From Eledone cirrhosa (lineage: Eukaryota): a DNA stretch of 64,000 nucleotides. The position numbers were made by a program, and so were the translations under genes. Location of the stretch: assembly GCA_964016885.1 (NCBI GenBank), contig OZ024746.1, positions 8,494,001 through 8,558,000 on the forward strand, in the 5' to 3' direction. Positions 901 to 63,610 of this stretch are shown here, piece by piece; position 1 is the stretch's first letter; every line of letters starts with the position of its first letter. The notes under the pieces were generated by a model. That model had not been told where the DNA came from. It saw nothing but the letters and a program-made list of their open reading frames with translations, and did not search any database.

Positions 901-1421
901 GTTTCTTGGTTTCTTGGTGAGGAGGGTGACTTTGGACATCCTGCAGGACTAAAAACAAAACCTGTCAAAGGGCAAAGGAGCTCTTAAGAGTCAATGGCCA
1001 TCCAAAATCACCGGGAGAGATGACCCCTTAGCCTTTGTAAAGGCAGAATTCTAGGAGAAGGACAACTCTGATATAACACCTGCAACCCTGATGGTATCCA
1101 ATGATGTTGACTTGTTCTTCTTTTTGGTAAATATCATCTTGGTTAAGAGAGTGGGACTGGCTTTGTGCAGTGCCTTTGCTCACTATAAAAGCTTCACGAC
1201 ACAGGCATTGCTTTATATCTGGAGAAGTCTCTGCACTTGTCGTCACATGGTACCATGGGCCCAGCACTATGTCTCAATAATTGTCACAAGTGTAGTGTTT
1301 GTACCAGAGTTTTCAAGTCGCTGGCTGGACTAAAAAGTCACACTCGTTCAGCGCATCGGTAGGGGTTCTCCTACATGGATATAAAGTAGTGGCCGTACTC
1401 GAAAACGAGTTGGCAGCCACC
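901..1421 (+). mobile_element. Non-autonomous RTE-derived retroelement (family A), 5'-truncated, (TATG)n tail
   Basis: Near-identical to 20250-20658, 26673-27260, 49636-50241 and 53203-53552. Constant 3' end gagttggcagccacc, variable 5' ends. Carries the RTE-like 5' motif ctaggagaagg.caactctgat and a C2H2-like remnant CSVCTRVFKSLAGLKSHTRSAH. Confidence 0.75.
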
Positions 1422-1646
1422 ATGTATGTATGTATGTATGTATGTATGTATGTATGTATGTATGTATGTATGTATGTATGTATCTATGTATGTGATTTTG
1501 GACACCATGTAGAACAAAAAACAAAACCTGACAAAGGGCAGAAGAACTCATAAGAGTCAACGGCCATCCAAAAAGTGTAAATATGTCTATGCATATGTGT
1601 GTATATGTATATATGTATATGCTTGTGTGCATGTGTATGTATATGC

Positions 1647-1957
1647 GCGGGGACATAGAAATAATCGGGCTGGATACCCGATCACGTGGTTAAACCACTG
1701 GGAGTGAAGGACATTCTTCTAGGAGAAGGGTACTCAGGAAAGTGGCATAACTCCGATATAAAACCTGCGGCTCAGTAGTTACCGATGATGTTGATCTTTT
1801 CTTCTTTTCGGGTTATAGCTACTTTCGCTCAGAGAGTGGGATTGGCTCAGTGCACAGTCTTTTCTCACTTTAAAACATTGCACGATAGCATTAATTAATA
1901 ATTATTAATAATGTTATACCGTGCAATGGCCATACTCGATAACGAGGGGCAGTCATC
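1647..1957 (+). mobile_element. Non-autonomous RTE-derived element (family B, related to A)
   Basis: Second copy at 19815-20163. Shares ctaggagaagg, gatgatgttga, gagagtggga.tggct and the 3' hairpin ggccatactcgataacgag with family A. Confidence 0.65.
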
Positions 1958-1971
1958 ATGTATATATGTAT

Positions 1972-2200
1972 GTTCTTCTGGATTTAATTTCACAAATGTT
2001 CGCCAATAGAGAGAGAGTAGGTTTCTAACATAGTTACAAGACTATCTCATTGGAAATGTCTGCATGTCTGCATGCATGCATGTGTGTGCAGGTATGGATG
2101 TTATTGTATGTGTGGGTGTGTATGTTTTGAGTTGTATGTATGCATGTGCATACGCTTTGTATCTGTATATGTGTATATGCAGTTATCAGGTGCCAAATTT
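1972..2200 (-). mobile_element. 3' UTR fragment of R4/Dong-like family 2
   Basis: Matches 49092-49350 and 26360-26600; flanked by (TATG)n. Confidence 0.65.
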
Positions 2201-3627: not shown

Positions 3628-3727
3628 CAGGGTGTCCCCAAGGAATGTATACACACATCAACAACATTCTAATAAATACTGCCTGTATAGATATTCAAAG
3701 TGTGTCTACATTTTTTTTAACACCCTG
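3628..3727. mobile_element. Possible Tc1/mariner-type MITE remnant
   Basis: cagggtgt...acaccctg termini with internal inverted similarity (aatgtatacac / gtgtctacatt). Confidence 0.4.
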
Positions 3728-3811
3728 TACCCTGTATATATATATATATAGAGAGAGAGAGAGAAAGACACCGAGAAAGAGATTGAACCTAACCGCGAAG
3801 CCAAGGGGTTT

Positions 3812-3931
<120 letters not shown>

Positions 3932-3970
3932 CTCTATCTATCTATCTATCTATCTATATAGATTATATAG

Positions 3971-6434: not shown

Positions 6435-6648
6435 GGTGGCTGCCAACTCGTTTTCGAGTACGGCCACTACTTCATATCCATGTAGGAGAACCCCTACTGA
6501 TGCGCTGAACGAGTGTGACTTTTTAGTCCAACCAGCGACTTGTAAACTCTGGTACAAACACTACACTTGCGACAATTATTGACACATAGTGCTGGGCCCA
6601 TGGTATCATGTGACGACAAGTGCAGAGAGATCTCCAGATATAAAGCAA
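6435..6648 (-). mobile_element. Family A copy, 5'-truncated, in a (CATA)n-type context
   Basis: Reverse complement of the family A 3' ~210 bp; the flanking microsatellite is inverted too. Confidence 0.75.
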
Positions 6649-6684
6649 TATGTATACATATATACATATACATATATACATATA

Positions 6685-8636: not shown

Positions 8637-8885
8637 AATTGTTTCTACTTTAGGCACAAGGCCGGCAATTATCCCAGTGTATTACTGGTACTTTATTTTA
8701 TCGACCCCATAAGGATGAAAGGCAAAGTTAACCTCGGCGGGATTTGAACTCAGATCATAAAGAGCCGTAACTCTATGCTGCAAAGCATGGCGTCGGAATG
8801 GTTTCTTATATATGCACTAGGCCCGCAATTTTAGGGGAGAGGAAAGTCGATTAAATTGACCCCAGTGCGTGACTGGTGCTTTATT

Positions 8886-8921
<36 letters not shown>

Positions 8922-10564: not shown

Positions 10565-10750
10565 TGTGGATTGGCAGTATCGGTAGAGGGTCGGACGCCA
10601 TGCTTTCCAGCATAGTTACGTCCCTTTACGATCTGAGTTCAAATCCCGCCGAGGTTGACTTTGCCTTTCATCCTTACGGGGTCGATAAAATAAAGTACCA
10701 GTAATGCACTGGGTAATTGCTGGCCTTGTGCCAAAAGTAGAAACAATTAT
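10565..10750 (+). mobile_element. S1 SINE
   Basis: Full S1 body starting ggattggcagtatcggtagag. Confidence 0.8.
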
Positions 10751-10802: not shown

Positions 10803-11467
10803 ATTGTTATACTTTGGGAGGGTCATGTTGCCAATAAGAAACACAGGCACCAGTTGCTTTCACTTCAATTTATTATAATAAATTTATAAATTTAGGAATT
10901 TATAAATTTCCGGTTGGTTGGTTGGTTCCACAACCAGATGGTTGTTTATATATGGTCAAAGTTCTTTCGTCACACATTCTGTGACCTCTTCAGTGACTGG
11001 AGATTCTTTTTTTTGTTTTTGTGCCTCTCCTTTGTTCTGTCCTACGCCATTTTGTTTTTGTGTGTGTGTTGTGTGCTTAGTTTGCGCATGTGTTACATCC
11101 GGGTGTCTGTGTGTGTTTATATTCGTTTATTTATTTGTTTATTTACATGTTACTGGTTGGTTGTTTGTTCTATGTGCGTGTGTGTTTTCATGTTGTCCTT
11201 AATTGTAAGTTGTGATGTTGCTGTTCCACTCATGTTTTCTATTTAATTCTGGTTGTAATTCATTTATGTTTATTGCCTCTGTGATTTGTCTAAACATTGC
11301 GTCTTTTCTGTGTGTAGATTCTATTTTTATTTCTATGTTCTCTAATTTACCCTTATGTATTTTAGCATGTTGGTAGAGTACAGATGATTCTTTACTATCT
11401 TGAAGGTCTCGCCAGTGTTCATTTATCCGTTCCCTTATACTACGGGCTGTCTCACCTATGTACATTC
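10803..11467 (-). mobile_element. Penelope-like element 3' fragment: GIY-YIG endonuclease C-terminus plus pLTR
   Basis: ORF 11199-11465 YIGETARSIRERINEH..SVLYQH..ITEAININELQPELNRK; the downstream region matches the 24917-25464 palindrome. Confidence 0.85.
10955..10998 (-). ncRNA. Minimal type I hammerhead motif in the PLE 3' region
   Basis: gtca-CTGAAGA-ggtcacagaatgtgtgac-GAAA-gaac-TT-tgac. Confidence 0.7.
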
Positions 11468-11967: not shown

Positions 11968-12400
11968 CGATTGGCAGTATCGGTAGAGGGTCGGACGCCA
12001 TGCTTTGCAGCATAGTTATGGCCCTTGCCATTCTGAGTTCAAATCCCGCCGATGTTAACTTTTCCTTTCATCCTTACGGGGTCGAGAAAATAAAGCATCA
12101 GTAACGCACTGGGGTCAATTTAATCGACCCCTCCCCCCCAAATTACTGGCCTTGTGCCTATACTAGAAATCATTATTATCTTTAGAAAAATTTGGGCGGT
12201 GGTTTGGCAGTATCAGTAGAGCGTCAGACACTATGCTTTGCAACATAGTTATGGCCCTTTGCGTTCTGAGTTCAAATCCGCCGAGGTTAACTTTGCCTTT
12301 CATCCTTACGAGGTCGATAAAATAAAGTACCAGTAATACACTGGGGTAATCGTTGGCCTTGTGCCAAAAGTAGTAACTCTAAAGTAGAAACAATTATCTT
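11968..12400 (+). mobile_element. Two tandem S1 SINEs sharing a triplicated target site (attatctttaga)
   Basis: attatctttaga at about 11939, 12175 and 12393 brackets both copies. Confidence 0.75.
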
Positions 12401-14104: not shown

Positions 14105-14779
14105 TACATCAAGCTCGTCAGACTGAAGTATTAAAGGGAAAATCTAAATAATCGTCCAGAATTTAGATCACTCATCACAAATACTATTGGTATGTCGAGT
14201 CTCTGATGTATTAGTTCAGTCTCTGTTGGTTGAATCAGTTTTATCTACGTTAATAAATACAGATGTAAAGGTATGGATGTCTCCACTTCCCATTACATCC
14301 TCCAGTTAAGATAGAGGAACTTACAAATCAAGTTATCGATTCGCTAGAAATAATATTTAAATCTCTTCAAATCGTAGCCCAATGTCATAGAACAATGAAA
14401 GACACTGGTTAGTACTGTAATACTAGATAGATTAACTAAAAGACGGGACAACTAGGATTAAACAACAACAACAAAAACAACAGCAGCCGCAACAACAGCA
14501 GCAGCAACAACAACAACAGCAGAACAAGAAGCAGCAGCAACAACAGCAACAACAACAACAAAACAAGAACAACAACAAAAAAACAAAACAGCAACAACAA
14601 GAACAACAACAACAAAGGAACCCTGTGATTTGTTAAAAGACGGCAATAATACATGATTTTATCTCGCTGCTAATTCACATCTTTGTCATTTCTTTTCGGT
14701 GGAAGATTTCCCACACTTACAGATAAATGATTAAATAAAAACCATCCAATAATCAAATAACATTATTTTTCTTTCCATA

Positions 14780-14965
14780 CGGCGGTGGATTGGCAGTATC
14801 GGTAGAGGGTCGGACGCCATGCTTTCAAGCATAGTTACGTCCCTTTACGATCTGAGTTCAAATCCCGCCGAGATCGACTTTGCCTTTCATCCTTACGGGG
14901 TCGATAAAATAAAGTACCAGTAATACACTGGGTAATTGCTGGCCTTGTGCCTAAAGTAGAAACAA
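14780..14965 (+). mobile_element. Full-length S1 SINE with 18 bp TSD
   Basis: attatttttctttccata at 14762-14779 and 14965-14982. Confidence 0.9.
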
Positions 14966-16011
14966 TTATTTTTCTTTCCATATTTGATTTTAACTTAGCT
15001 TTTCCTATGTATCAAGACTTAAATATACTTTCAACTATTTAACTATGATTCATGTAAGTAGATGACGTCTCCGAATTATCTATTGACAAGTAGACTTATT
15101 CATTGAGAATTAAGTGTCTCAGGCGAAGGAAGATGACACGGGTGCCGTGTTAAGACAACAACTGTCAACACTTTTGCCGCATCCAATCAATTCAAAAAAC
15201 CATCAATCTAATTTATTTCAAAATAATTTCTTCTGTTTCTGGAATATTTGTAGATATCTAAGTGAGTGTGTGAGTGTATGAGTGTGTGTGAGTGTGTGTG
15301 AGTGTGTGTGTGAGTGTGTGTGTGTGTGAGTGTGTGTGTGAGTGTGTGTGTGTGAGTGTGTATGTGAGTGTGTGTGTGTGTGAGTGTGTGTGAGTGTGAG
15401 TGTGTGAGTGTGTGTGAGTGTGTCTGAGTGTGTGAGTGTGTGTGAGTGTGTGAGTGTGTCTGAGTGTGTGAGTGTGTGTGAGTGTGTGTGTGTGTGTGAG
15501 TGTGTATGTGAGTGTGTGTGTGTGTGAGTGTGTGTGAGTGTGTGTGAGTGTATGAGTGTGTGTGAGTGTGTGTGAGTGTAAGTGTGTGAGTGTGTGAGTG
15601 TGTCTGAGTGTGTGAGTGTGTGTGAGTGTGTGTGAGTGTGTGTGTGTGTGAGTGTGAGTGTATGAGTGTATGAGTGTGTATGAGTGTGTGTGAGTGTGTG
15701 AGTGCGCGCGTGTGTATGTAGGAGTATGTAGGAGTATGGATATGTGTATATGTGTGTATACGGGGTGGGCTGTATGTGGGTCGGGGGTTCTGATGAATTT
15801 GATTCGATTTGAATTAATTCTTATGTTAAAATTACATGAAACTACATTCAGTTGGTGATAATAGCCAAGACCGACCCCCAAAGTGTGATTAAAACATCGA
15901 CAGATAACGCAAACAGCAGCGTTAAATATCTTATGGTCGTAGCATTTGTTTGTATGGAACAGTAACTATTGGTGGAGTCTTAAGGGCGCCGTAGTGACAT
16001 ATGGCATTTGT

Positions 16012-19085: not shown

Positions 19086-19746
19086 TTATCTCTTTCTCTT
19101 AATTTCGAGTATATTTTTTTTGACCGGCCACCTTCCTGGTGGCAAGGTTGTAAAAGAAAAGAAATTGTCATCCCTTGAATCGCAAGAATGTTTTGCAAAT
19201 TTTGAAGGTGCCAGCTATCGCAGCCATTTGTAGACTATGAATTAGGGAGCTGCGCTTTTTGTCCGCAAATCCAAGTTCGGTCATACTTTGGTCCAAACAG
19301 GTTGGTATATAACCTATAGCTCCAATAATGATGGGTATGAAGCTAAAGGTGTATCTTGGATACTGGATTTGTAAACTCCTCATCAATGGTCCGTAGATGT
19401 CCTCCTTCTCCTGTATTTTTCTGACAACGTTTACATCAAGTGGGCAGCTGATCTCTACAACAGAACACGTTTTCAATGTGTGGTCCCAAACAACAATATC
19501 AGGTCGGTTGTGCTTTAATTTGGTGGCAGTTTTTATTTTCAGGTTCCACCAGTATTCCTTAGTGCCATCTGTCTCAATATATTCTTCCTCGTTTGTTGTT
19601 AATTTTGTTTTCCGAAGTGCGTTCCAGATGGTTCTAGCTATCCCATCGTGTCTCATGGGAGGTAGTAGCGAGATGACATTCTTTCGCAGCTGGCAACAAT
19701 GTGGCTTACATCCTCGATCTTTGTTTTACATAGCCTACATTTATTG
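19086..19746 (-). mobile_element. 5'-truncated R4/Dong-like family 1 copy in (TATG)n
   Basis: Near-identical to 50287-50945; ORF 19168-19656 carries the REL motifs RHD, RPDIVV, VVEISCP. Confidence 0.85.
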
Positions 19747-19814
19747 TATGTATGTATGTATGTATGTATGTATGTATGTATGTATGTATGTATGTATGTA
19801 TGTATGTATGTTTT

Positions 19815-20163
19815 GCGGGGACATAGAAATAATCGGGCTGGATACCCGACCACGCATTTAAACCACTGGGAGTGAAGGAGCCCTAGTCCTTGTCAGGGCA
19901 TTCTTCTATCAGAGGGCATCTCAGGAAACTGGGTTAACTCCGACATAAAACCTGCGGCTCAGTAGTTATCGATGATGTTGATCTTTTCTTCTTTTTTCGG
20001 GTTATAGCTACTGTCGATCAGAGAATGGGATTGGCTCAGTGCACAGTCTTTCCCCACTTTAAAAAAATCTTTACGCACAGTCATTGCACGATGGAATTAA
20101 TTAATAATTCTAATAATGGTATATCGTGAAATGGCCATACTCGATAACGAGGGTGCAGCCATC

Positions 20164-20196
<33 letters not shown>

Positions 20197-20658
20197 TGTA
20201 TGTATGTATGTATGTATGTATGTATGTATGTATGTATGTATGTATGTATCCGGGAGAGATGACCCCTTAGCCTGTCAAGGCAGAATTCTAGGAGAAGGAA
20301 AACTCTGATATAACACCTGCAACCCTGATGGTATCCAATGATGTTGACTTGTTCTTCTTTTTGGTAAATATCATCTTGGTTAAGAGAGTGGGACTGGCTT
20401 TGTGCAGTGCCTTTGCTCACTATAAAAGCTTCACGGCACAAGCATTGCTTTATATCTGGAGATCTCTCTGCACTTGTCGTCACATGGTACCATGGGCCCA
20501 GCACTATGTGTCAATAATTGTCACACGTGTAGTGTTTGTACCAGAGTTTTCAAGTCGCTGGCTGGACTAAAAAGTCACACTTGTTCAGCGCATCGGTAGG
20601 GGTTCTCCTAAATGGATATAAAGTAGTGGCCGTACTCGAAAACGAGTTGGCAGCCACC
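19815..20658 (+). mobile_element. Family B (19815-20163) and family A (20250-20658) copies separated by (TATG)n
   Basis: Similarity to the other A and B copies. Confidence 0.75.
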
Positions 20659-23184: not shown

Positions 23185-23282
23185 CACGTGTATGAGATAT
23201 CACTAGTTGAAACCAGTAAGATTATTAGTCAACTTAGCACTACGTTCCTAAGCAAAGTAGAGCCTAAATATTACAATATTAG

Positions 23283-23700
23283 TGAATTGGCAGTATCGGT
23301 AGAGGGCCGGACACCATGCTTTGTAGCATAGAGTTACGTCCCTTTATAGTCTGAGTTCAAATCCCGCCGAGGTTAACTTTCCCTTTCATCCTTACGGGGT
23401 CGATAAAATAAAGTACCAGTAATACACTGGGATAATTGCTGGCCTTGTCGCCCTCTCTATATCAATTACCACCAAACTCTCCCTCTCTCTATATCTAACA
23501 TACAACACACTCACTCTCCCAACTTTCCTCTCTATATCAATTACCACCAAACTCTCCCCCTCTCTATATCAATTACCACCAAACTCTCCCCCTCTCTATA
23601 TCAATTACCACCAAACTCTCCCCCTCTCTATATCAATTACCACCAAACTCTCCCCCTCTCTATATCAATTACCACCAAACTCTCCCGCTCTCTATATCTA
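23283..23700 (+). repeat. S1 SINE (23283-23448) followed by a 32 bp minisatellite (ctctctatatcaattaccaccaaactctcccc)
   Basis: About 6-7 units from 23452 to 23700. Confidence 0.8.
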
Positions 23701-24916: not shown

Positions 24917-25464
24917 ATATTGTTATACTTTGGGAGGGTCATGTTGCCAATAAGAAACACACGCACCAGTTGCTTTCACTTCAATTTAATTTAATATATA
25001 TTTATAAATTTACAAATTTATAAATTTCTGGTTGGTTGGTTGGTTCCACAACCAGATAGTTGTTTATATATATATATAGTCATAGTTCTTTCGTCACACA
25101 CTCTGTGACCTCTTCAGTGACTGGGATTTCTTTCTTCGTTTCTGTGCCTTTCCTTTCTTCTATCCTACGCCATTTTGTTTGTGTGTCAAACAAACACACA
25201 AACAAAATGGCGTAGGATAGAAGAAAGGAAAGGCACAGAAACGAAGAAAGAAATCCCCAGTCACTGAAGAGGTCACAGAGTGTGTGACGAAAGAACTATG
25301 ACTATATATATATATAAACAACTATCTGGTTGTGGAACCAACCAACCAACCAGAAATTTATAAATTTGTAAATTTATAAATATATATTAAATTAAATTGA
25401 AGTGAAAGCAACTGGTGCGTGTGTTTCTTATTGGCAACATGACCCTCCCAAAGTATAACAATAT
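24917..25464. mobile_element. Inverted pair of Penelope pLTR segments (~270 bp arms, ~8 bp spacer)
   Basis: Arms are reverse complements and match 10803-11070 downstream of the GIY-YIG ORF. Confidence 0.85.
25259..25303 (+). ncRNA. Minimal hammerhead motif (mirror copy at about 25078-25122, minus)
   Basis: agtca-CTGAAGA-ggtcacagagtgtgtgac-GAAA-gaac-TA-tgact. Confidence 0.75.
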
Positions 25465-26359: not shown

Positions 26360-26654
26360 GTTCTTCTGGTTTTATAATTTCACAAATTTTTACCAATAGA
26401 GAGAGAGTCGTTTTCTAACATAGACACAAGACTCTCTCATTGGAATTTACACAACATCAACTAGGTAGATTATGTATGCATGCATGTGTAGATATGGATG
26501 TTATTGTATGTGTGGATGTGTATGTTTTGAGTTGTATGTGTGCATGTGTATATGCTTTGTATCTGTAAATGTGTATATGCAGTTTTTAGATACAAAATGT
26601 TTGGAATGTTTTACATATTTTTACTGTTCCTTGTAATTTCCTAACTAGTTGTGT
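26360..26654 (-). mobile_element. R4/Dong-like family 2, 3' fragment
   Basis: Matches 49092-49420; flanked by (TATG)n. Confidence 0.75.
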
Positions 26655-26672
26655 ATGTATGTATGTATATAT

Positions 26673-27258
26673 GTCAGGTCACCAGTTGGTGCTACTGGTA
26701 ACATATATCCCAGTACAACCTGTCTCATGGTCGGGTCGTTGGCGACTAAACTGGCAACCCCACCAAGGTTTCTTGGTGAGGAGGGTGACTTTGGACATCC
26801 TGCAGGACTAAAAACAAAACCTGTCAAAGGGCAAAGGAGCTCTTAAGAGTCAATGGCCATCCAAAATCACCGGGAGAGATGACCCCTTAGCATTTGTCGG
26901 GGCAGAATTCTAGGAGAAGGAAAACTCTGATATAGCACCTGCAACCCTGATGGTATCCGATGATGTTGACTTGTTCTTCTTTTTGGTAAATATCATCTTG
27001 GTTAAGAGAGTGGGACTGGCTTTGTGCAGTGCCTTTGCTCACTATAAAAGCTTCACGGCACAGGCATTGCTTTATATCTGGAGATCTCTCTGCACTTGTC
27101 ATCAGATGGTACCATGGGCCCAGCACTATGTGTCAATAATTGTCACAAGTGTAGTGTTTGTAACAGAGTTTTCAAGTCGCTGGCTGGACTAAAAAGTCAC
27201 ACTCGTTCAGCGCATGGATATAAAGTAGTGGCCGTACTCAAAAACGAGTTGGCAGCCA

Positions 27259-27260
<2 letters not shown>
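26673..27260 (+). mobile_element. Apparently full-length family A element
   Basis: Starts gtcaggtcacc, identical to the start of the 49636 copy. Confidence 0.75.
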
Positions 27261-29244: not shown

Positions 29245-29251
<7 letters not shown>

Positions 29252-29627
29252 GCAGTGATTCATTAGAGTTTTGGGGGAAATAATTATTATTGCTTCGTCT
29301 CTTTTTGTTTATATTTAAATATTTTGTCCTCTTCTGATAAACAGTAACAAGCTATATTCAATTTAAACAATTTAGGCACTTGGTAAACGGATTTCATATA
29401 TATATATATATGAAGATATATATGTATGTATGTATATATATACATACATATATATATATGCACATATGTATATATGAAATCCGTTTACCAAGTGCCTAAA
29501 TTGTTTAAATTGAATATAGCTTGTTACTGTTTATCAGAAGAGGACAAAATATTTAAATATAAACAAAAAGAAACGAAGCAATAATAATTATTTCCCCCAA
29601 AACTCTAATGAATCACTGCTGTTTTTT
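29245..29627. repeat. Inverted repeat with ~160 bp arms around a TA-rich spacer
   Basis: 29245-29405 versus 29469-29627, near-perfect. Confidence 0.9.
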
Positions 29628-39533: not shown

Positions 39534-39544
<11 letters not shown>

Positions 39545-39680
39545 TCAAACGCATATACATATATGTAAGTGTATGTTTGCGTGTGTGTACGTAGGTATAC
39601 AATAGTATAATTTTTATATGTTGCTTTGTAAAATGTTATTGTTGCTCTCTCTCTCTCTCTGTGTATATCTATATATATAT

Positions 39681-39763
<83 letters not shown>

Positions 39764-39871
39764 AACAATAACATTTTACAAAGCAACATATATAAATTAT
39801 ACTATTGTATACCTACGTACACACACGCAAACATACACTTACATATATGTATATGCGTTTGAGTGTGTGTA

Positions 39872-40264: not shown

Positions 40265-40450
40265 TGAACTGGCAAAATCGGTAGAGCGTCGGAAACTCTG
40301 CTTCGCAGCAAAGAATTATGTCCCTTTATGGTCTGAGTTCAAATCCCGCCGAGGTTAACTTTGCCATTCATCCTTACAGGGTCGATAAAATGAAGTACCA
40401 GTAATGGACTGAGTAATTGCTGGCCTTGTGCCGAAAGTAGAAACAATTAT
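40265..40450 (+). mobile_element. S1 SINE
   Basis: S1 body and 3' end. Confidence 0.8.
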
Positions 40451-45469: not shown

Positions 45470-46755
45470 ACTCCTGAGGTAGTCTTAGGGGCGCCATATT
45501 GAGATACGGCGTTTCTAGGGCAGTTTTTACATCCTAGCGGAGTTCATTTTCCCTCCAGGTGTGAATACAGCAGATTCTTCTAGAGAAGGATAAAGAGTGA
45601 GAGAAAGAGATATAGAAGAAGAATCGACCCCAGTACTAGATTGCTACTTTTTTAAAATCGAACTTGAAGGGACGAAAGACAAAGTACCTCGGCAGGATTT
45701 GTACTGAGCGAGCAGATAACCGGAATGAATACCACAAAGCATTCTATCCAACGTTCTAACGACTGCCATTCTATCCGACGTTCTAACGACTGCCATTCTA
45801 TCCGACGTTCTAACGACTGCCATTCTATCCGACGTTCTAACCACTGCCATTCTATCTGACGTTCTAACGACTGCCATTCTATCCGACGTTCTAACGACTG
45901 CCATTCTATCCGACGTTCTAACGATGCCATTCTATCCGACGTTCTAACGACTGCCATTCTATCTGACGTTCTAACGACTGCCATTCTATCTGACGTTCTA
46001 ACGACTGCCATTCTATCCGACGTTCTAACGACTGCCATTCTATCTGACGTTCTAACGACTGCCATTCTATCCGACGTTCTAACCACTGCCATTCTATCTG
46101 ACGTTCTAACGACTCTGCCATTCTATCTGACGTTCTAACGATTGCCATTCTATCTGACGTTCTAACGACTGCCATTCTATCCGACGTTCTAACGACTGCC
46201 ATTCTATCCGACGTTCTAACGACTGCCATTCTATCTGACGTTCTAACGACTGCCATTCTATCCGACGTTCTAACGACTGCCATTCTATCCGACGTTCTAA
46301 CGACTGCCATTCTATCCGACGTTCTAACGACTGCCATTCTATCTGACGTTCTAACGACTGCCATTCTATCTGACGTTCTAACGACTGCCATTCTATCTGA
46401 CGTTCTAACGACTGCCATTCTATCCGACGTTCTAACGACTGCCATTCTATCTGACGTTCTAACGACTGCCATTCTATCCGACGTTCTAACGACTGCCATT
46501 CTATCTGACGTTCTAACGACTCTGCCATTCTATCTGACGTTCTAACGACTGCCATTCTATCTGACGTTCTAACGACTGCCATTCTATCTGACGTTCTAAC
46601 GACTGCCATTCTATCCGACGTTCTAACCACTGCCATTCTATCTGACGTTCTAACGACTGCCATTCTATCCGACGTTCTAACGACTGCCATTCTATCCGAC
46701 GTTCTAACGACTGCCATTCTATCTGACGTTCTAACCACTCTGCCAATTCGCCGTC
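45470..46755 (-). mobile_element. S1b SINE whose 5' head contains a ~1 kb array of a 27 bp unit (45741-46745, about 37 copies)
   Basis: Unit on the minus strand is tggcagtcgttagaacgtcggatagaa; the SINE start lies on one side and the SINE body on the other. Confidence 0.85.
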
Positions 46756-46837
46756 GACAATCATCTACTAATATACATTAAATTTATTATGCTCCCTTTC
46801 GCTAAATAGGATAGCAATCATTATTACACAACGGAAA

Positions 46838-47250
46838 GGGCGGTGGATTGGCAGTATCGGTAGAGTGTTGGACGCCATGCTTTCCAGCATAGTTACGTCC
46901 CTTTACGATCTGAGTTCAAATCCCGTCGAGGTTGACTTTGCCTCTCATACTTACGGGGTCGATAAAATAAAGTACCAGTAATGCACTGGGTAATTGCTGG
47001 CCTTGTGCCTAAAGTAGAAACAATTATTACACAACGGATTGCTAGTATCGGTAGAAGGTCGGACGTCCATGCTTTTCAGCATAGAGTTACGCCCCTTTAT
47101 AGTCTGAGTTCAAATCTCGCCAAGGTTCACTTTGCCTTTCATCCTTACGGGGTCGATAAAATAAAGTACCAGTAATGCACTGGGGTCGATTTAATCGACT
47201 TTCCCTTCCCCCCAAAATTGCTGGCCTTGTGCCTATATAAGAAACCATTA
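46838..47250 (+). mobile_element. Two tandem S1 SINEs with a triplicated 15 bp target site
   Basis: attattacacaacgg at about 46819, 47023 and 47247. Confidence 0.85.
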
Positions 47251-47609
47251 TTACACAACGGTTTAAGGCTTTCGTTGCCATATTTCTAATTAAAGATGTT
47301 GCTTATGATTTTCAGTTGTGCCCCCTTCCGAACCCCATTTGGGGTCTCGGGATACGCAATACTTGTGCGTTCATCCCACGTCATCCATGACAGGTCGCAA
47401 GCTCATCGCGTGTTTTTGCGGCATGAAATGGAGACTGCATTATATTTTTCGAACAGGCTCCCTTAACACCCGAACGCGTCCCTTTTTAACCTGCACGAAG
47501 GACGATTTAATTCCTCTCACCATATTGCAGTTTAGGTGATCTTATTCCCGCCAATCACCAATCGGGTTCAATCCGGGTTGACCAGGGGCTACACAACAAC
47601 AGTAACACT

Positions 47610-47830
47610 AATTGTTTCTACTTTTGGCACAAGGCCAGAAATTATCCCAGTGTATTACTGGTACTTTATTTTATCGACCCTGTAAAGATGAAAGGCAAAG
47701 TTAACCTGGGCGGGATTTGAACTCAGACCATAAAGAGCCGTAACTCTTTGCTGCAAAGCATGGCGTCCGACCCTCTACCGATTCTGCCAACCCATAATGG
47801 TTTCTAATTTGGGAGGAAGGCCTACAATTT
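47610..47830 (-). mobile_element. S1 SINE (other minus-strand copies at about 16270-16430, 28410-28575, 33136-33250, 57650-57825, 63195-63362)
   Basis: Reverse complement of S1. Confidence 0.8.
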
Positions 47831-48064
47831 TGTGGGATGGGAAAGACAATTAAATAAAAAAAAAAGGTGACGAGAAATCTCATTCATGAGAAAACACATA
47901 CTCACACACATACATACATATAAATATATGCATACATACATATGCATACAAACATATGCATACATACATATGCATACATACATATGCATACATACATATG
48001 CATACATACATATGCATACATACATATGCATACATACGCAGATAGATAGACACACACACACACG

Positions 48065-48855: not shown

Positions 48856-49091
48856 CATGTGTATGTACAGGGTGAGTAAAATGTAGCGGCCATACATATG
48901 TATGTATATGCTGAACATTTATAAAATAATTGTTTCTACTTTAGGCACAAGGCCAGCAATTACCCAGTGCATTACTGGATAAAATAATAAAACCAAAAGA
49001 CATACATACTTATATATATGGGCGTTCCATTTGATTCACTCTGTATGTATGTATGTATGTATGTATGTATGTATGATGTAATTTTATGTAT

Positions 49092-49597
49092 GTTCTTCTG
49101 GTTTTATAATTTAACAAATGTTTGCCAATAGAGAGAGAGAGAGAGAGAGAGAGCGAGTCGGTTTCTAACATAGACACAAGACTCTCTCATTAGAATTTAC
49201 ACAACATCAACTAGGTAGATATGTATGTATGCATGCATGTGTAGATATGGATGTTAATGTATGTGTGGATGTGGATGTTTTGAGTTGTATGTGTGCATGT
49301 GTATAAGCATTGTAGCTGTACAAGTGTATATGCAGTTATTAGATGCAAAATGTTTGAAATGTTTTACATATTTCTACTGTTCCATTAATGGATTGTACTT
49401 GTAATTTCCTAACTAGTTGTGTTCTTTCTGTTCCTGTGAAGCCTAGCTTCTCAAGATTTGTATTGAGGCAGTTACTAACATATCCCAGTGCCCCAATAAT
49501 CACAGGCATAAATCCGAATGTATAATCAGGGTGGAGTATCTGCAGATTTTTCATTAGTTCTGCATAAACATTCTCATTTTCGCTAATCTTTGATATT
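49092..49597 (-). mobile_element. R4/Dong-like family 2, 3' fragment with REL C-terminus
   Basis: ORF 49339-49554 LQILHPDYTFGFMPVIIGALG..ICKTF is paralogous to family 1 LQIQYPRYTFSFIPIIIGATG..ICKTF. Confidence 0.8.
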
Positions 49598-49635
49598 ATG
49601 TATGTATGTATATATGTATGTATGTATATATTTAT

Positions 49636-50241
49636 GTCAGGTCACCAGTTGGTGCTACTGGTAACATGTATCCCAGTACAACCTGACCCATGGTCGGGTC
49701 GTTGGCGACTAAACTGGCAACCCCACCAAGGTTTCTTGGTGAGGAGGGTGACTTTGGACATCCTGCAGGACTAAAAACAAAACCTGTCAAAGGGCAAAGG
49801 AGCTCTTAAGAGTCAATGGCCATCCAAAATCACCGGGAGAGATGACCCTTTAGCCTTTGTCAAGGCAGAATTCTAGGAGATGGAAAACTCTGATATAACA
49901 CCTGCAACCCTGATGGTATCCAATGATGTTGACTTGTTCTTCTTTTTGGTAAATATCATCTTGGTTAAGAGAGTGGGACTGGCTTTGTGCAGTGCCTTTG
50001 CTCACTATAAAAGCTTCACGGCACAGGCATTGCTTTATATCTGGAGATCTCTCTGCACTTGTCGTCACAGGGTACCATGGGCCCAGCACTATGTGTCAAT
50101 ATTTGTCACAAGTGTAGTGTTTGTACCAGAGTTTTCAAGTCGCTGGCTGGACTAAAAAGTCACTCGTTCAGCGCATCGGTAGGGGTTCTCCTATATGGAT
50201 ATAAAGTAGTGGCCGTACTCGAAAACGAGTTGGCAGCCACC
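49636..50241 (+). mobile_element. Apparently full-length family A element (~605 bp)
   Basis: See the other family A copies. Confidence 0.8.
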
Positions 50242-50286
50242 ATGTATGTATATATGTATGTGTGTTTATATGTATGTATGTATATG

Positions 50287-53048
50287 TCTCTCTTTCTCTT
50301 AATTTCGAGGATATTTTTGACCGGCCACCTTCCTGGTGGCAAGGTTGTAAAAGAAAAGAAATTGTCATCCATTGAATTCCAAGAATGTTTTGCAAATTTT
50401 GAAGGTGCCAGCTATCGGAGCCATTTGTAGACTATGATTTAGGGAGCTGCGCTCTTTGTCCGTAAATCCAAGTTCAGTTATACATTGGTCCAAGCGCGTT
50501 GGTATATAACCCGTAGCTCCAATAATGATGGGTATGAAGCTAAAGGTGTATCTTGGATACTGGATTTGTAAACTCCTCATCAATGGTCCGTAGATGTCCT
50601 CCTTCTCCTGTATTTTTCTGACAACGTTTACATCAAGTGGGCAGCTGATCTCTACAACAGAACACGTTTTCAATGTGTGGTCCCAAACAACAATATCAGG
50701 CCGGTTGTGCTTTAATTTGGTGGCAGTTTTTATTTTCAGGTTCCACCAGTATTCTTTGGTGCCATCTGTCTGAATATATTCTTCCTCGTTTGTTTTTGAT
50801 TTTGTTTTCCGAAGTGCGTTCCAGATGGTTCTAGTTATCCCATCGTGTCTCATGGGGAGGTAGTAGCGAGATGACATTCTTTCGCAGTGGGTAACAATGT
50901 GGCTTACAGCTTCGATCTTTGTTTTACATAGCCTACATTTATTGTCAGCTGATGGCCCTCCTCTTTTGTGCAGCAGATATTTGGTAGGGAGTTCTTGTTC
51001 TTGTATTGCATAGAGATATCCCTCAAGGTGTGATGTCATAAACTTGCCGGAACTCCATGCCAGGCTTTTTGAGTGGTTTATCCCCTTTATGGTCTGTGTT
51101 TTACATCTCAAGTATCCATGCATAACCTTTTCTGTAAATTGGTCAATTTTTTCTTCTTGTTTGAACATTGAATAGGATCTTCCAATTTCTCTGGGGAAGA
51201 GATTTATATCAGGCTTTATTCCATATCTTTCCTCCAGATCAGTGGCTATCCTAATGATATTTTTTTCTTCATGTTCATAAACCTGGGCAAGATGGTTGCC
51301 AACCGTTTTCCTCTATTGAAGGTGTTGCTTCAGTGTTACTATCCGCGTCTCATATGATGTTAATATGGATTTTAGAACCCGGCCACCTTCCTTGCGAAAG
51401 AAGTATAGCCTATCCACATCACCATTGATGTTAAAGTTCCCAGTAACACTGAGAAGTTTGCGGGTTCTAACATCCATCTCACTTAGTTTTTGCAATGACC
51501 AGTTCAGCAGGCCAAATGTTGGCGTTAGAATTGGCAGAGCATAAGTATTGTGGGCAATGTATTTGTTGTACGCTGACAGTTCTGATGACCATATTTTCTT
51601 TACTCTTCTGAGGTATTCAGTTCTGGTTTTCTCCTTATTTATGGGTCTATCATATCTGACATTCTCATCTTGTCCAAGATATCTGTAGTTGTCACCTGAC
51701 TGTAGAGGTTGTATTGTCAGGCCGTTCATCTCTAGATTTTTAGAGGAGGGCACAACCCTTCCAAGTTTTACTGCCAAATATGCACACCTGGACTCACCAA
51801 ATTTCATTTTGATGGCTGTTGAAAATTGTGTAATGAGGTCCAATTGTTTCTTGATGTCGTTAATATTTGGCCCATACAACTTCAGGTCATCAACAAAGAA
51901 AGATGGAAGATACTTCTGGACCCACTTCTTTGTCCACCTTGTTTCCTGAGTAGGTAAGATAGTGGATTTAGTGAGAGAACGAAAAGTAGCACTGACAAGC
52001 TATCACCCTGAAAGATGCCCTTCTGGTAATGTATCTTATCAGTCTTAACCTGCTCCTTCTCACCTTTAAGGATCAAGTTGGTGTACCAGTTTTTGGTCAG
52101 ACGTTCAACAGCAGCTACCAGTGGTTGTGGGACTTTGGCTAACTGTAAAGCCTTAACAATCCACCCATGAAGTACACTATCAAATGCTTTTTGATAGTCC
52201 AGCCACACCACAGTCATGTTTCTGCTATTCTTTGTTGTTTTTTCTTGAATCATTTTATTTGTTAGTAGGTGATCTATGCAACCCCACACCTCCCTCTTTC
52301 CACCAGCTTGCTCAGGTGTTATAATGTTGTTGGTAGCACAATGATCCTGTAAGAACAGGTTAAGGCACTCAGTATATAATTAATACATGATGTTTTGGCA
52401 GGCTATTGGGCGGTAATTTTTAGCAAGGGCGGTTTGGCTATTTTTGGGAATGATGAGAATAGTGGCAGTTGATAACCATTTCGGTAGTTCTTGTGTGCCT
52501 TTAATGGTTTCTGTAAACAGCCGTATGAGATCTTGCCGATAGAAAGTGAAATTCTTCAACCAGTATCCTGTTATAAGGTCTGGGCCTGGTGATTTCCTAT
52601 TCGACATTTTCTGTAGAGCTGTTTCCAGTATTGACCCATCTATGTCATATTGTTTTGTCTGGATATGTTGGCAGTAGTCCTGTTTCAGTTCTTTTAGCCA
52701 TTTAGTTTGTTTGTTGAATCCTTCATCCGTTTCCCATACAGATCTCCAGTAGCTCTCAACCTGTTCTTTTGAAGGGTGTCATTTACAGAGATTGAGCTTT
52801 TGCCACTGAAGCTGCAATAAATTGATTTAGGATCTCTGGCAAACAATCTATTTAGCACTTGTCGTTTATGTGCTGTTGACTTATATTTTAGTCTTTCTGT
52901 TGTAGCTGTGAGTTGTTGTTTCAACTGGTGTAATTTGGAGTTTAAAGTTTTAAATTTTGTATCTCCAGATCGTCTCTCTAATTTTTTTCTTACGTCTTCC
53001 TGGTGTCGTGTGAAGTTGCTCTCTATGTTGCATTTCATAACGACTGCG
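50287..53048 (-). mobile_element. R4/Dong-clade non-LTR retrotransposon (family 1), 5'-truncated
   Basis: Single-ORF RT + CCHC + REL architecture, flanked by degenerate (TATG)n. Confidence 0.9.
50365..53038 (-). pseudogene. Frameshifted RT-REL polyprotein
   Basis: In order: LNRLFARDPKSIY; KSPGPD..NYRPIAC; DYQKAFDSV, QGDSLS; FVDDLKLY (about 51875-51897); YRYLG; CRLC..HIVTHC; RHD; RPDIVV..VVEISCP. Split over at least five ORF pieces. Confidence 0.9.
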
Positions 53049-53087
53049 TATATATGTATGTGTGTATATATGTATGTATGTTTATAT

Positions 53088-53552
53088 GTCGAGTACGGCC
53101 ACTACTTTATATCCATGTAGGAGAACCCTTACCGATGCGCTGAACGAGTGTGACTTTTTAGTCCAGCCAGCGACTTGAAAACTCTGGTACAAACACTACA
53201 CTAATATAACACCTGCAACCCTGATGGTATCCAATGATGTTGACTTGTTCTTCTTTTTGGTAAATATCATCTTGGTTAAGAGTGGGACTGGCTTTGTGCA
53301 GTGCCTTTGCTCACTATTAAAGCTTCACGGAACAGGCATTGCTTTGTATCTGGAGATCTCTCTGCACTTGTCGTCACATGGTACCATGGGCCCAGCACTA
53401 TGTGTCAATAATTGTCACAAGTGTAGTGTTTGTACCAGAGTTTTCAAGTCGCTGGCCGGACTGAAAAGTCACACTCGTTCAGCGCATCGGTAGGGGTTCT
53501 CCTACATGGATATAAAGTAGTGGCTGTACTCGAAAACGAGTTGGCAGCCACC
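53088..53552 (+). mobile_element. Family A copy (53203-53552) preceded by an inverted duplicate of its own 3' part (53088-53202)
   Basis: 53088-53202 is the reverse complement of about 53420-53533. Confidence 0.8.
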
Positions 53553-53847
53553 ATGTTTATATGTATGTATATATGTATATATGTATTAAAGGACTGGGTC
53601 TAAAAATATTTGTTGCCTGGAATAGACAAAGGGGACCCCACACAACTACAATACTTTCATTTAATTTTTATTTCGAATAAATAATTTTTTAAATATTTAA
53701 AACAAAAAACCTCTCTATTTCTGTGTGTGAAATTGACCGTAAAAATGTAAAATAAAAATACGGATTATAGTATATATTAAACATTTCTGACCTTCTCCAA
53801 TAAAAAGATATACGTCCACAAAATAGCAGTAATGAGAAACTCAAGAC

Positions 53848-54476
53848 AGCTTGCGAGGAGAGCGGGGTAAGGCCCAGCAAGGCCGAAGCAATCTATAGCC
53901 AAACACACGACGCTATAGCTTGTGAGGAGAGCGGGGTAAGGCCCATCAAGGCCGAAGCAATCTATAGCCAAACACACGACGCTATAGCATGTGAGGAGAG
54001 CGGGGTAAGGCCCAGCAAGGCCGAAGCAATCTATAGCCAAACACACGACGCTATAGCTTGTGAGGAGAGCGGGGTAAGGCCCAGCAAGGCCGAAGCAATC
54101 TATAGCCAAACACACGACGCTATAGCATGTGAGGAGAGCGGGGTAAGGCCCAGCAAGACCGAAGCAATCTATAGCCAAACACACGACGCTATAGCATGTG
54201 AGGAGAGCGGGGTAAGGCCCAGCAAGGCCGAAGCAATCTATAGCCAAACACACGACGCTATAGCTTGTGAGGAGAGCGGGGTAAGGCCCAGCAAGGCCGA
54301 AGCAATCTATAGCCAAACACACAACGCTATAGCATGTGAGGAGAGCGGGGTAAGGCCCAGCAAGGCCGAAGCAATCTATAGCCAAACACACGACGCTATA
54401 GCATGTGAGGAGAGCGGGGTAAGGCCCAGCAAGGCCGAAGCAATCTATAGCCAAACACATGACGCTATTACTTGTG
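53848..54476. repeat. GC-rich 69 bp tandem array, about 9 near-identical units
   Basis: Period 53855 to 53924; unit gaggagagcggggtaaggcccagcaaggccgaagcaatctatagccaaacacacgacgctatagc(t/a)tgt. Confidence 0.95.
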
Positions 54477-56436: not shown

Positions 56437-58009
56437 TACAGACATATATATATATATACGTATATATATAACCAGAAACTTACTAAGGCAATACAGATAT
56501 CTGTAGCCGTTGGTTTAGTGAAGAGGAATATGGCAGATGTTATGCCCAGGATGTTTTGACAAGAAAAATATTCTCACAATAATCGGCAAGATGCTAAACG
56601 TAATATTAAACTACAAGCAATCAAAATTAAAAAAGGAAGTTTATAATATGATTCTGTCTTCACGATTATGATAAAGAATGTAGAAACGGTCGAAATATTT
56701 TGGTCGCCATCATGAATGTCTAGGACGATTTCTGTCTATTATGCACAGCACTGGCTTCATGCCAGATAGCAGTTTTCTCTGTACAAGCAGCTTTTACTGG
56801 AATTGGAAAACATCTCGATGGATAAATAAATCTCACTCAGTTCAGGTGTCACACAATAAACTACAGAAACTGGGTTGGGTTTGGTAAGGGAAGTTATAAG
56901 AGTCTTACCAAGAAAATATATTATGCAATCCAAAATGTCATTCAAGTTCAGATTACTACAATAAATAGAAAAATTAAAAGTGTAATATTTATTTAGTTTA
57001 GTTTTCATTTATAAGATTTTATCCAGTCTATTGTCTATGACCATGGCAACGATAAAAACATATGACATGTGGTTTCATGTCCTACAGGATGTTAAGAGTT
57101 AATGTGATGTAGTCATAGTGTTGTTTTGTACTTTTTAAGAATATTTTGCTAATGTGGCTTCATGTGGTACAGGATGTTAAGAGTTAATGTGATGCAGTCA
57201 TAGGGTAAGAAAATGGGGGTCCATGCGCTGGCCGCTCCACGGCCCCGGAGGATAGAATAGAGAGGGCGTTTTCACGGAGGATGGTGAGGGAGACGCATTG
57301 GAAGAGCCAATCCAGGTCTCGAGGCTCACACCCACGGGTAGCCAACATGCAGAATCCCTAGCACTAGTTACAGACCTTTATGTTTTGAGTTTCAAAGCCA
57401 CAGAGGCCAAATTGTCTTTCGCGTTTTCTAGTACTATAAAGTAAAGAAAGAGTGAAATATTGGTCTCGATATAATTAACTATCGATCTCCACCAAAAGTA
57501 CATGGCACTGGGCCTCTGCTAGAAACTGATATTTCCCTTTTATTTAGGTCAGCGAGAGATTAGTAGATTTGGTAGAGTTATCTCTCTTTAAATTCTGATT
57601 TCGAATGCCAATAGGGCCAACAATTCTTTGTTTGAGCCGATAAAATGAGTGTTTCTATTTTTGACACAAGGCCAGCAATTACCCCAGTACATTACTGGTA
57701 CTTTATTTTATCGATCGCGTAAGGATGAAAGGCAAAGTTAACCTCGTCGGGATTTGAACTCAGATCATAAAGGGCAGTAACTCTTTGCTTATAAAGCATA
57801 GCGTCAGACCCTCTACCGATACTAAGTGCAAGTAAAATAGTGAGATCTACCACAACCATCTACCATGACTCGCGCACCAAATGTCGGGCTTTGTACTTAT
57901 TCTCTTCTTATCGTTATTTCCACTTGCAGCAGAGTACGAAACGTCACGAACGTATTTCAATTTGTATTTGAAATTATTCATAATCCTACTCAGGGTCTAC
58001 CCCCTTATT

Positions 58010-62300: not shown

Positions 62301-63610
62301 CGCACGTACACACGTACACACACATACACACATACACATACACATACACACACATATATATATATTGCTTGGTGTGTGAAGATTGGATTCCCACATATGC
62401 CGTAGTTGTCTGTTGAGTGACTGTGTAATTCTTACTGTTGTGTGTGAGTGAAGGAGTTATTTTCATTTTGCTACTAATGTTATTTACTGACGATATATAA
62501 ACGTGTGTTTATTATTCACAGTTGTATAAATAACATTACAAATATTCACTCAGCTGGCTTTAAAACCATTGATATATACCGAAGACGCTACTTTTTTCCT
62601 AAAACAAGTCTCAAAAATTTACTATGCGTCCTGGAGGTCGAAGGGTGTTTATTATTTTTTTTCAAATTTTTGGTTGTCAAAATCAGGGTGCCCTCCTCGA
62701 AGACGAAGCGTCTTCGGCGCCGGGAAATATGGTACCTAAATATGAAAAACAAATATAAAAGCAAAATTAAGTAGAGGAAAGGACTATAAAAGCCAAAAAT
62801 GAAAGGAAAAGGAAGGGAAAAACAAAGACTCTAACGCGACAGAAGAAGGGGGAAGGGGAGAGGGTGATAGGTTCTGATCCTAGGATGGGGTGGTGTTGGG
62901 CGCTGCACAACAAAAGCAGACAATGGCCAGCGACACCCGCTGCAACAGCCACCCCCACCCCGCAGGAATTCTTCCTCAGACGGGCCGCTGACGTTCCGAC
63001 CTTGCGGAGGAGTTCGGCAGTACGGGGCCTGAGAAATAGAAGCTTCACCGTAACATTGACTAAATAATAGTCTAATAATGGGGCATATAAACAGACACAA
63101 TGGAAAAAAGATGGATATCAGTTTCCTTCTATAATAGTATTTATGTTGTATATATTCACCTGTAAAGCTATGTGAATGTGTGATGTGAGTTACTAACAAT
63201 GATTTCTTATATAGGCACAAGGCCAACAATTTTTGGGAAGGGGGAAGTCGATTAAATCGACACCAGTGTGTAACTGGTACTTTATTTTATCGACCCCGTA
63301 ATGATGAAAGGCAAAGTTAACCTCGGCGGGATTTGAACTCAGATCATAAAGGGCCGTAACTCCTAATTATCGTATATCTAGACTTCGACGTAGAGAGAAA
63401 AGTACTTCAAAGATGTAAGCTATACAGAAATGGTATAAACCACAATTGAAAATACCGTCTTAGTACTATAGTCTTAGAGACAAAGCTCCAACACCGCCCC
63501 GCCATAGATCCACAGCCCATCACCCCCCCATCTGTAGCACTAGATCCCTTGCTTTCCCCCTCCCTTTTCCGTTTGTAAATACTTGTAGTGTTTTTCTAAT
63601 GATATATATA

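Follow-up and report, generated by a model that had tools for sequence, protein, structure and literature searches.

Background

Several parts of what we describe here are known separately. Among retrotransposons with a restriction-like endonuclease (REL), Dong is reported to target (TAA)n (PMC2887409), and both microsatellite-targeting REL elements and convergent targeting, as described in PMC4640811, are already known. RTE insertion is described as not sequence-specific (PMC2887409, PMC8501958), bipartite RTEs have been reported (PMC5786205), and RTE 5' ends are expected to hold a ribozyme (PMC6765202). For Octopus vulgaris, Dong-R4 elements are described as abundant and recently active, and RTE as active too (PMC13282606). 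We analysed a stretch of 64,000 nucleotides from Eledone cirrhosa (contig OZ024746.1, positions 8,494,001 to 8,558,000), called the window below, and in particular its interval 49045..53585, in which copies of a short RTE-derived family A and of two R4-like families, R4-1 and R4-2, are crowded among (TATG)n repeats. An earlier note on this DNA had proposed that such repeats, which read (CATA)n on the other strand, are a shared target of fixed polarity for two unrelated clades, and that nests of copies seed themselves. Our analysis agrees with the first idea and not with the second. We are confident that pre-existing (TATG)n/(TA)n tracts are the insertion targets of both the RTE lineage and the R4/Dong-type families, with opposite orientations for the two clades. 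In our opinion, the most valuable lead would be a predicted module at the RTE 5' end, specific and conserved, which resembles the exoribonuclease-resistant RNAs (xrRNAs) of flaviviruses. According to the reviews cited, xrRNAs have been characterised only in viruses and cellular examples are anticipated (PMC8374639, 2021; PMC11702639, 2024).

A full-text literature search, taking in titles and the starts of abstracts and covering few subscription papers, found no paper on a TATG-specific RTE or R4 element or on a natural retrotransposon xrRNA. The families may be annotated in Repbase or listed in the supplements of PMC13282606 and PMC5786205.

One target, two orientations

The assembly is 3.0 Gb in size and simple repeats are abundant in it. 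We used an unbiased sample of 119 evenly spaced 10-kb stretches (1.19 Mb), and a set of search-derived loci, made up of best-scoring matches and bystanders, the window's own copies included, deduplicated by flank. In the unbiased sample, a TATG- or TA-type tract adjoins 15 of 16 A 3' ends and all 17 A 5' junctions, and CATA adjoins none; the four R4 3' ends stand at CATA (three) and at other sequence (one). Random 20-mers, our background, are TATG-type in 2.4%, CATA-type in 2.3% and TA-type in 4.9%. The search-derived loci give the same picture with larger numbers. The 3' end meets TATG in 61 of 71 A copies (TA 9, CATA 1), 45 of 52 copies of the second short family, B (TA 5, CATA 0), and 27 of 37 RTE copies (TA 3, CATA 2), and it meets CATA in 37 of 46 R4-1 and 57 of 62 R4-2 copies, never TATG in either. 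Orientation and flanks are hence not random genome-wide, and the tabulation against random 20-mers bears out the shared, polarity-fixed target: RTE, A and B lie sense to (TATG)n/(TA)n, and the R4 families lie antisense with the tract on both sides. The 5' flank is CATA-type in 11 of 11 full-length R4 copies. Truncated 5' junctions are less uniform, the flank being of another kind in 14/27 RTE, 15/33 B, 8/33 R4-1 and 18/47 R4-2 copies, and many of these are alignment breaks or internal rearrangements. At two loci (L147 and L139) the R4-2 3' end is followed by (CA)n with no (CATA)n, and the target of R4-2 is therefore somewhat relaxed. We infer that the opposite polarity needs no coupling between the clades, because each holds one orientation on a non-palindromic repeat; the contrast between them is a single binary outcome.

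Annotated against single full-length reference copies of each family, the window contains 14 pieces (A 7, B 2, R4-1 2, R4-2 3). Apart from the A copy at 6435, beside which the tract is flipped, all are inside four clusters, and the statement that these families do not occur in the window outside TATG tracts is correct. So is the statement that the five REL copies are antisense to TATG: all are on the minus strand and their 3' ends lead into ACATAC. The claim that A and B are always sense to TATG stands for the plus-strand copies and for the flipped-tract copy at 6435-6649, but an antisense A piece at 53089-53202 had gone unlisted. It is no independent exception, because it is part of one duplication-bounded insertion (53089-53552). 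The picture of elements alternating with (TATG)n spacers needs a similar correction: the clusters are real, but two supposed spacers are not, the TATG-like stretch at about 1576-1645 being internal to element B and that at about 49220-49340 internal to R4-2's 3' untranslated region (UTR). The clusters are not segmental duplicates of one another, since truncation point and junction differ in every copy. The locus is an insertion nest built by two target-specific clades.

The elements

Three long RTE copies (3,953-4,059 bp) contain both ends of A, its first 429 bases at 96-98% and its last 178 bases at 94-96% identity. A is thus built only of the 5' and 3' parts of an autonomous RTE and has no open reading frame (ORF). 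The long copies encode an apurinic/apyrimidinic endonuclease (APE), a reverse transcriptase (RT) and three C2H2 fingers, with the Pfam domains Exo_endo_phos and RVT_1 recognised in locus L246. The RTE origin supposed for A and B is borne out, A having this 4.06-kb parent with its APE-RT-C2H2 order: both are short internal-deletion derivatives of RTE elements. The search for autonomous partners had a mixed outcome, since the parent of A was found, but the RTE copies examined have frameshifts and stops and none has an intact ORF, and no partner of B was found. B and two further families, C and D, have start and end motifs in common with A and the same two-part build; RTE parents of all three were sought and not found. 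We assign the parent to the RTE clade from domain order and characteristic motifs, its homologues being nearly all unnamed, and the label is probably correct. A protein search with A's zinc-finger peptide gave no match.

The genome contains 8,575 exact matches to a 66-base piece of A, and a pattern that excludes A itself leads to different upstream sequence, its 199 matches being truncated RTE copies. Scaled from the 3' ends in the unbiased sample (A 16, B 7, R4-2 3, R4-1 1), rough genome totals are 40,000 for A, 18,000 for B, 7,500 for R4-2 and 2,500 for R4-1. One region (G000:C1:136410478-136474190) has a series of at least ten A copies, all sharing one small deletion and spaced about 4-13 kb apart, a local tandem amplification. 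The 40-base 3' end of B recurs after a T-rich run at L097, L158, L230, L255, L302 and L308, which may reflect either another element with a borrowed B tail or poly(A) inserted in antisense at one fixed position. An old APE fragment, tried as a route to A's parent, returned only a decayed RTE family (L181-L210). This family is large and old, with 3,163 candidates, a longest open frame of 372 amino acids among 150 scored, and a 5' UTR that resembles part of A's; its 30 loci and one further stretch gave no real match to the 5' fold described below.

Full-length copies of R4-1 (4,254 bp) and R4-2 (4,085 bp) are about 67-75% identical in nucleotides over their aligned parts. Both encode an RT, a CCHC knuckle and a C-terminal PD-(D/E)xK endonuclease, and the best solved-structure matches of their proteins are R2 proteins. 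R4/Dong elements lack N-terminal zinc fingers, unlike R2 and NeSL, and no such motif was found in the first 1.7 kb of one full-length copy per family. This layout supports the view that the REL elements are R4-like. The R4/Dong label, which we consider probable, is drawn from domain layout and general criteria of the clade, the 120 listed homologues having no named references such as R4, Dong or Rex6; one R4-2 homologue carries an Argonauta name.

Both the target and the fingers seem to be traits of a small lineage. We compared 80 metagenomic RTE relatives, 40 of which reach the C-terminus, and placed 70 rows on a quick tree, from which 11 of the 80 loci were excluded because their coverage was short. 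TATG runs are found in only two of the 80, L328 (both ends) and L368 (3' end), with the polarity of our RTE, and three C-terminal C2H2 fingers in only two of 40, again L328 and L368. The two group with this RTE on the tree (support 80 and 97) and are its nearest metagenomic relatives (41-46% identity). A link between fingers and target is a hypothesis only, because the three form one clade and count as one event, which speaks against reading more into the coincidence.

The tracts are probably older than the insertions

The earlier note supposed that A and B insertions make new (TATG)n tails. Our test for target duplications was strict (exact, junction-anchored, a repeat imperfection required) and replaced a looser one with a high control rate. 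Of 185 RTE-group copies, 16 had such a duplication; the rate was 1% when flanks were swapped, and only 64 of the copies were able to show one. They are mostly 8-22 bases long, and one consists of 54 bases of mostly unique DNA. The duplicated target begins at the first base past the RTE end, with no repeat within the duplication; both A insertions of the 49045..53585 interval carry such a duplication. Imperfections are duplicated, therefore the tract pre-existed the insertion. The perfect TATG run has a median of one unit downstream and three upstream (85 copies, p=4e-7), and the four bases after the RTE-group end (ATGT in 60 and ATAT in 37 of 114) follow the local tract. The supposed new tails are thus not supported, and the RTE probably adds none on insertion.

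Self-seeding of the nests fares no better. In the unbiased sample, an RTE-type end stands on the 5' side of 15 of 234 TATG tracts (8 of 74 long ones), or 6-11%; 36 of the 234 touch at least one of these families, and 198 touch none. Across the tract from an R4 3' end we find an RTE end in 11 of 58 cases and another R4 in 12 of 58; the first figure exceeds that for all tracts (15/234, p=0.007), but not significantly that for long tracts (8/74, p=0.22). Pairwise identities (A 0.966, RTE 0.949, R4-2 0.924, B 0.911, and R4-1 0.898 from only 9 copies) suggest that A is the latest arrival, younger than R4-2 and R4-1. Because A looks younger than the R4 families, it probably often landed beside R4 and not the reverse. 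We looked for one family interrupting another and found no case. A weak form of self-seeding survives: an insertion divides its tract in two and duplicates about 12 bases, B and R4-2 carry internal TATG-like stretches, and adjacency of R4 and RTE ends is above that of average tracts. The nests are best read as repeated strikes on shared pre-existing targets. Some observations do not fit well: 28 of 169 RTE-group copies have no upstream tract (some of these are alignment artefacts), L221 and L225 are preceded by unique DNA and followed by about 65 bases of TATG, as a self-made tail would give, and the R4-1 duplication signal is not above control (2/33 vs 8.9%).

A predicted flavivirus-like fold at the RTE 5' end

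Subclass-1a xrRNAs are described as having a three-way junction, a C between helices P2 and P3, a first pseudoknot (PK1) of 1-2 bp and a second (PK2) of 2-7 bp (PMC8571300), and are also marked by a U-A-U triple (PMC7749634). The first 60 bases of RTE, A and B fit this subclass with a three-way junction and two pseudoknots, and all of its features can be drawn on A. The best Rfam match of the module is Flavivirus_SLIV (RF01415), over the whole model, with 23-24 bits and an E-value of 0.02. In the printed alignment, 27 of 31 core positions agree exactly, and the four that differ make up two compensated pairs. We wrote a descriptor of the junction, the C, PK1, PK2 and the triple. It fits five of seven sequences (RTE/A, B, an older family E, and the relatives L347 and L362) and none of 2,100 shuffles. 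In the 1.19 Mb it finds seven element 5' ends and six simple-repeat matches, and in 58 kb of the relatives' 5' regions two matches (L347, L362), with none on the reverse strand.

In L347 and L362 (41% protein identity), compensatory changes preserve the helices and, in L347, the PK1 pair as well. Such changes occur in P2, P3 and PK1, and the covariation score over the seven sequences was equalled by 2 of 500 shuffles. The unpaired C between P2 and P3 is invariant in the seven aligned sequences, and so are the bases of the triple, whose geometry is predicted only (its U is absent in L388). Both PK1 pairs are possible in A, B, L362 and L347, where U-A changes to G-C; PK2 has 4 bp in A and B, 5 in L347, 6 in family E and 2 in L362, and is changed on both sides in L388. 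The minimum-energy fold of the isolated module is a three-way junction in four of five. Searches with covariance models bring in L388 and L325 as well, both lacking some of the contacts.

The 5' junction is sharp, full-length copies ending 5-6 bases ahead of P1. TATGT precedes P1 in 45 of 50 full-length copies, and a TT break of the target's periodicity lies at -6/-5 from P1 in 22 of the 50, against 1.3% per position, and in 2 of 62 truncated copies. Flaviviral xrRNAs are reported to halt Xrn1 about 5 nt upstream of P1 (PMC7749634), and the TT break would therefore place the RNA end, indirectly, where they stop Xrn1.

Much can be held against this interpretation, and we list it together. The Rfam score is far under the gathering cut-off (24 vs 54.5 bits), L347 has no SLIV match, and at gathering level Rfam finds nothing in the window and nothing in 40 relatives. 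Within a set of 20 copies from this genome itself, covariation does not exceed that of shuffles, the fold is no more stable than shuffles, and with 13 more downstream bases a competing hairpin becomes the minimum-energy fold. Single contacts are imperfect: family E has one PK1 pair and a G-A mismatch for the other, the PK1 G is missing in one B copy (L231), L325 (weakly also L334 and L386) keeps the helices with a C where PK1 needs G, L362 retains only two PK2 pairs, and L388 fails the descriptor. The fold is also patchy, with three clear and one weaker match in 80 relatives and three changes on the quick tree. We consider it possible, while leaning to the contrary, that the RTE/A/B fold resists Xrn1.

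The fold pattern had no match in the viral contigs searched. A pattern for families with changed PK1 had three matches in this genome, two mutated A copies and one that led to family E. Family E forms tandem arrays of a 5' module of about 102-107 bases, up to about 20-30 units, followed by an RTE-like UTR; no ORF was found nearby in three stretches (L409, L410, L407).

Other relatives have other structures in this place. The 5' start of L328 shows, read by eye, an HDV (hepatitis delta virus)-like P1/P3/L3 arrangement right after the TATG flank, which the stricter of two HDV descriptors missed. With that descriptor, 6 of the 5' regions of 48 relatives gave a core, and the reverse-complement control gave 2. 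The two descriptors gave no HDV-like ribozyme, a nested double pseudoknot with P1, P1.1, P2, P3 and a catalytic C, in RTE/A, B or E, and no Rfam ribozyme family, twister included, matched the 5' module at E up to 5, where a divergent twister could be missed. The 5' regions of L374, L351, L372, L363 and L328 contain HDV-like cores that Rfam misses at gathering level. Within this group of RTEs, exchange of the 5' module seems to have happened repeatedly.

Interpretation and alternatives

The account towards which we lean, with some reserve, is that both clades target pre-existing tracts from opposite sides, that the RTE adds no tail, and that the 5' end of the RTE RNA likely comes from an exonuclease stalling at the predicted knot. 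The two clades would prime reverse transcription from opposite strands of the repeat that they share. The RTE preference would come from the three C-terminal fingers, or from pairing of the RNA end with the nicked tract. We suggest tentatively that read-through transcripts from the upstream tract are trimmed by a host 5'-3' exonuclease back to the knot, which would do the job of the HDV-like or twister ribozymes of other RTEs. Nests would grow as long tracts are struck repeatedly, each strike leaving two target tracts. One may go further and speculate, though we would not wager on it, that the knot is a true subclass-1a xrRNA by which host Xrn1, in the role of a ribozyme, matures the RTE RNA. 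The leader bases closing the knot agree with the TATG target, and landing in the repeat would thus rebuild them. The fold, in thousands of copies, would then be shared with flaviviruses by descent or exchange.

Two alternatives concern the target. If RTE-type insertions added new (TATG)n tails which became the main landing sites for R4 and later RTE copies, the enrichment of RTE-type 3' ends next to R4 3' ends over background tracts and the few truncated RTE copies with unique upstream DNA and a long downstream tract would be explained, and lepidopteran RTEs are described as creating repeats between target duplications (PMC2887409). We nevertheless find this improbable, given that the duplications start at the junction with no repeat inside, that perfect runs are shorter downstream and of a type that follows the site, that 198 of 234 tracts touch no such family, and that A appears younger than the R4 families. 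That insertion is near-random and copies merely persist in microsatellites, or that tracts expanded around elements later, would suit a genome so rich in such repeats (about 11% of random 20-mers), but we give it hardly any credence: near-identical young copies are already flanked by tracts on both sides, polarity is family-specific, duplicated imperfections point to an earlier tract, and distant relatives have the same repeat and polarity.

The other two leave the targeting as it stands and concern the 5' module. It could be an unrecognised or remodelled HDV-like self-cleaving ribozyme with an incidental likeness to xrRNA, as HDV-like or twister ribozymes are reported to fill this slot in other RTEs (PMC6765202, PMC8501958). 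The CTAAA motif into which the conserved module runs also resembles the J4/2 strand that the HDV-like cores of L374 and L351 contain. Ribozyme satellites form tandem arrays, and family E does so with its module of about 102 bases. The negative HDV descriptors and Rfam searches, and a junction 5-6 bases before P1 and not at the helix start, make this rather doubtful in our eyes. We also think it unlikely that the module is an internal promoter, a protein-binding or a translation element with a fixed start, its helices serving that role or being incidental. A fixed start site would, it is true, give an equally sharp junction, and LINE (long interspersed element) 5' ends are described as able to drive transcription (PMC5786205). 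The tandem 5' monomers of family E are also reminiscent of promoter monomers, if one compares them with the 5' ends of LINEs. Some LINEs carry such monomers in tandem. But compensatory changes in three helices and a PK1 pair point to selection on RNA shape, and RTEs with ribozymes are described as having no promoter of their own (PMC6765202). The extra base at the junction is moreover a T, with G being indistinguishable from the repeat in TATG flanks. A copied cap would be expected to leave a G there.

If an xrRNA step exists, it would be a third way for a LINE to set its 5' end, beside ribozymes and internal promoters, and it would bear on the origin of flaviviral xrRNAs. A microsatellite-specific RTE lineage with three terminal fingers would bring target specificity into a clade that has been described as lacking it, and an abundant non-coding target is of interest for RNA-based insertion tools. 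For TATG markers in such genomes, a minority (here 36 of 234 tracts) would have repetitive flanks.

Other features of the window

A SINE-like (short interspersed element-like) abundant family of about 180 bases, 85-97% identical, occurs in both orientations and independently of TATG tracts. Minisatellite arrays with periods of about 54 and about 69 bases are found at 45740-46745 and 53848-54476. Near-perfect inverted repeats of 100-260 bases surround simple-repeat cores and are MITE-like (resembling miniature inverted-repeat transposable elements) or foldback.

Table 1. Position and strand of the features in the window (the 49045..53585 nest first) and of the family E arrays
Feature	Position	Strand	Remarks
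(TATG)n tract, 3' of R4-2 end	49044..49092	+	
R4-2, 5'-truncated: REL endonuclease end and 3' UTR with internal degenerate repeat	49093..49599	-	nt 3621-4085 of 4085-bp L259 copy
14-base target-site duplication of A copy	49618..49631	+	repeated at 50242-50255
5' leader (5-6 bases) and xrRNA-like fold: P1, P2, unpaired C, P3, predicted PK1/PK2	49632..49692	+	P1 from 49638
A, full length: RTE nt 1-429 and last 178 nt	49638..50241	+	last C2H2 finger and 3' UTR retained
R4-1, 5'-truncated, frameshifted: RT, CCHC knuckle, PD-(D/E)xK endonuclease	about 50286..53048	-	
Single A insertion: inverted piece nt 474-585 and sense piece nt 250-604	53089..53552	+	bounded by 11-12 base target duplication
A, 5'-truncated	908..1421	+	
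B, one copy including internal degenerate TATG stretch	1492..1957	+	
R4-2 3' UTR fragment	1973..2200	-	
A 3' fragment, tract flipped	6435..6649	-	
R4-1 3' fragment	19089..19747	-	
B 3' part	19815..20163	+	
A, 5'-truncated	20250..20658	+	
R4-2 3' fragment	26361..26654	-	
A, full length, then (TA)n instead of (TATG)n	26675..27260	+	
SINE-like family copies	1-750, 8640-8886, 10566-10747, 11969-12377, 14777-14972, 23279-23448, 40270-40450, 46837-47253, 47609-47855, 57637-57823, 63193-63365		
Inverted repeats	3965-4841, 10812-11063 / 24928-25453, 29245-29626, 39538-39869		
Family E arrays	L409:368-2300; L410:339-1060; L407	- (L409)	matches on C2, C24, C26

Comparison with known systems

Like Bov-A, RTESINE1/2 and WALLSI3 as described in PMC5786205, A joins an RTE 5' UTR and 3' end by internal deletion; it differs in its preference for a single microsatellite and in its putative xrRNA-like 5' fold. 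Its parent shares with lepidopteran RTEs (PMC2887409), Perere-3 (PMC8501958) and the octopus element RTE-2_OV (PMC9115989), as far as these accounts describe them, a single APE-RT ORF, target duplications, an association of the 3' end with simple repeats and a structured 5' module. It departs from them in an ORF that ends in three C2H2 fingers, RTE-2_OV being compared by description only. The lepidopteran elements are described as creating the repeat inside the duplication, whereas here the repeat is the target; non-specific insertion and an element-derived repeat tail, typical of RTEs and not defining, both seem to be absent from A's parent. Unlike the modules of Perere-3 and other RTEs, this one came out of our tests as neither HDV-like nor twister.

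Compared with the flavivirus subclass-1a xrRNA (RF01415; PMC8374639, PMC8571300, PMC7749634), the candidate would have the same three-way junction with a P1 of 5 bp, the unpaired C between P2 and P3, the same pairing of the 5' end to the junction, a U and an A-U pair for the triple, and a second pseudoknot of 4-5 bp. In both, the RNA end lies about 5 bases before P1, here by prediction. The viral structures are described in 3' UTRs, whereas a cellular retrotransposon carries the candidate at its 5' end; its score is below the Rfam cut-off, and single contacts are missing in some relatives.

The R4 families agree with the R4/Dong clade, as described, in RT, CCHC knuckle, C-terminal restriction-like endonuclease and microsatellite on both flanks; compared with Dong, their target is (CATA)n and is common to two families. 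The repeat content of this genome is similar to that reported for Octopus, with RTE and Dong-R4 (PMC13282606). The closest parallel to the nest as a whole is that of Keno and Utopia at the U2 snRNA (PMC4640811), where APE and REL elements are likewise described on one target, but the shared target here is a microsatellite, dispersed and abundant, on which the two clades point in opposite directions.

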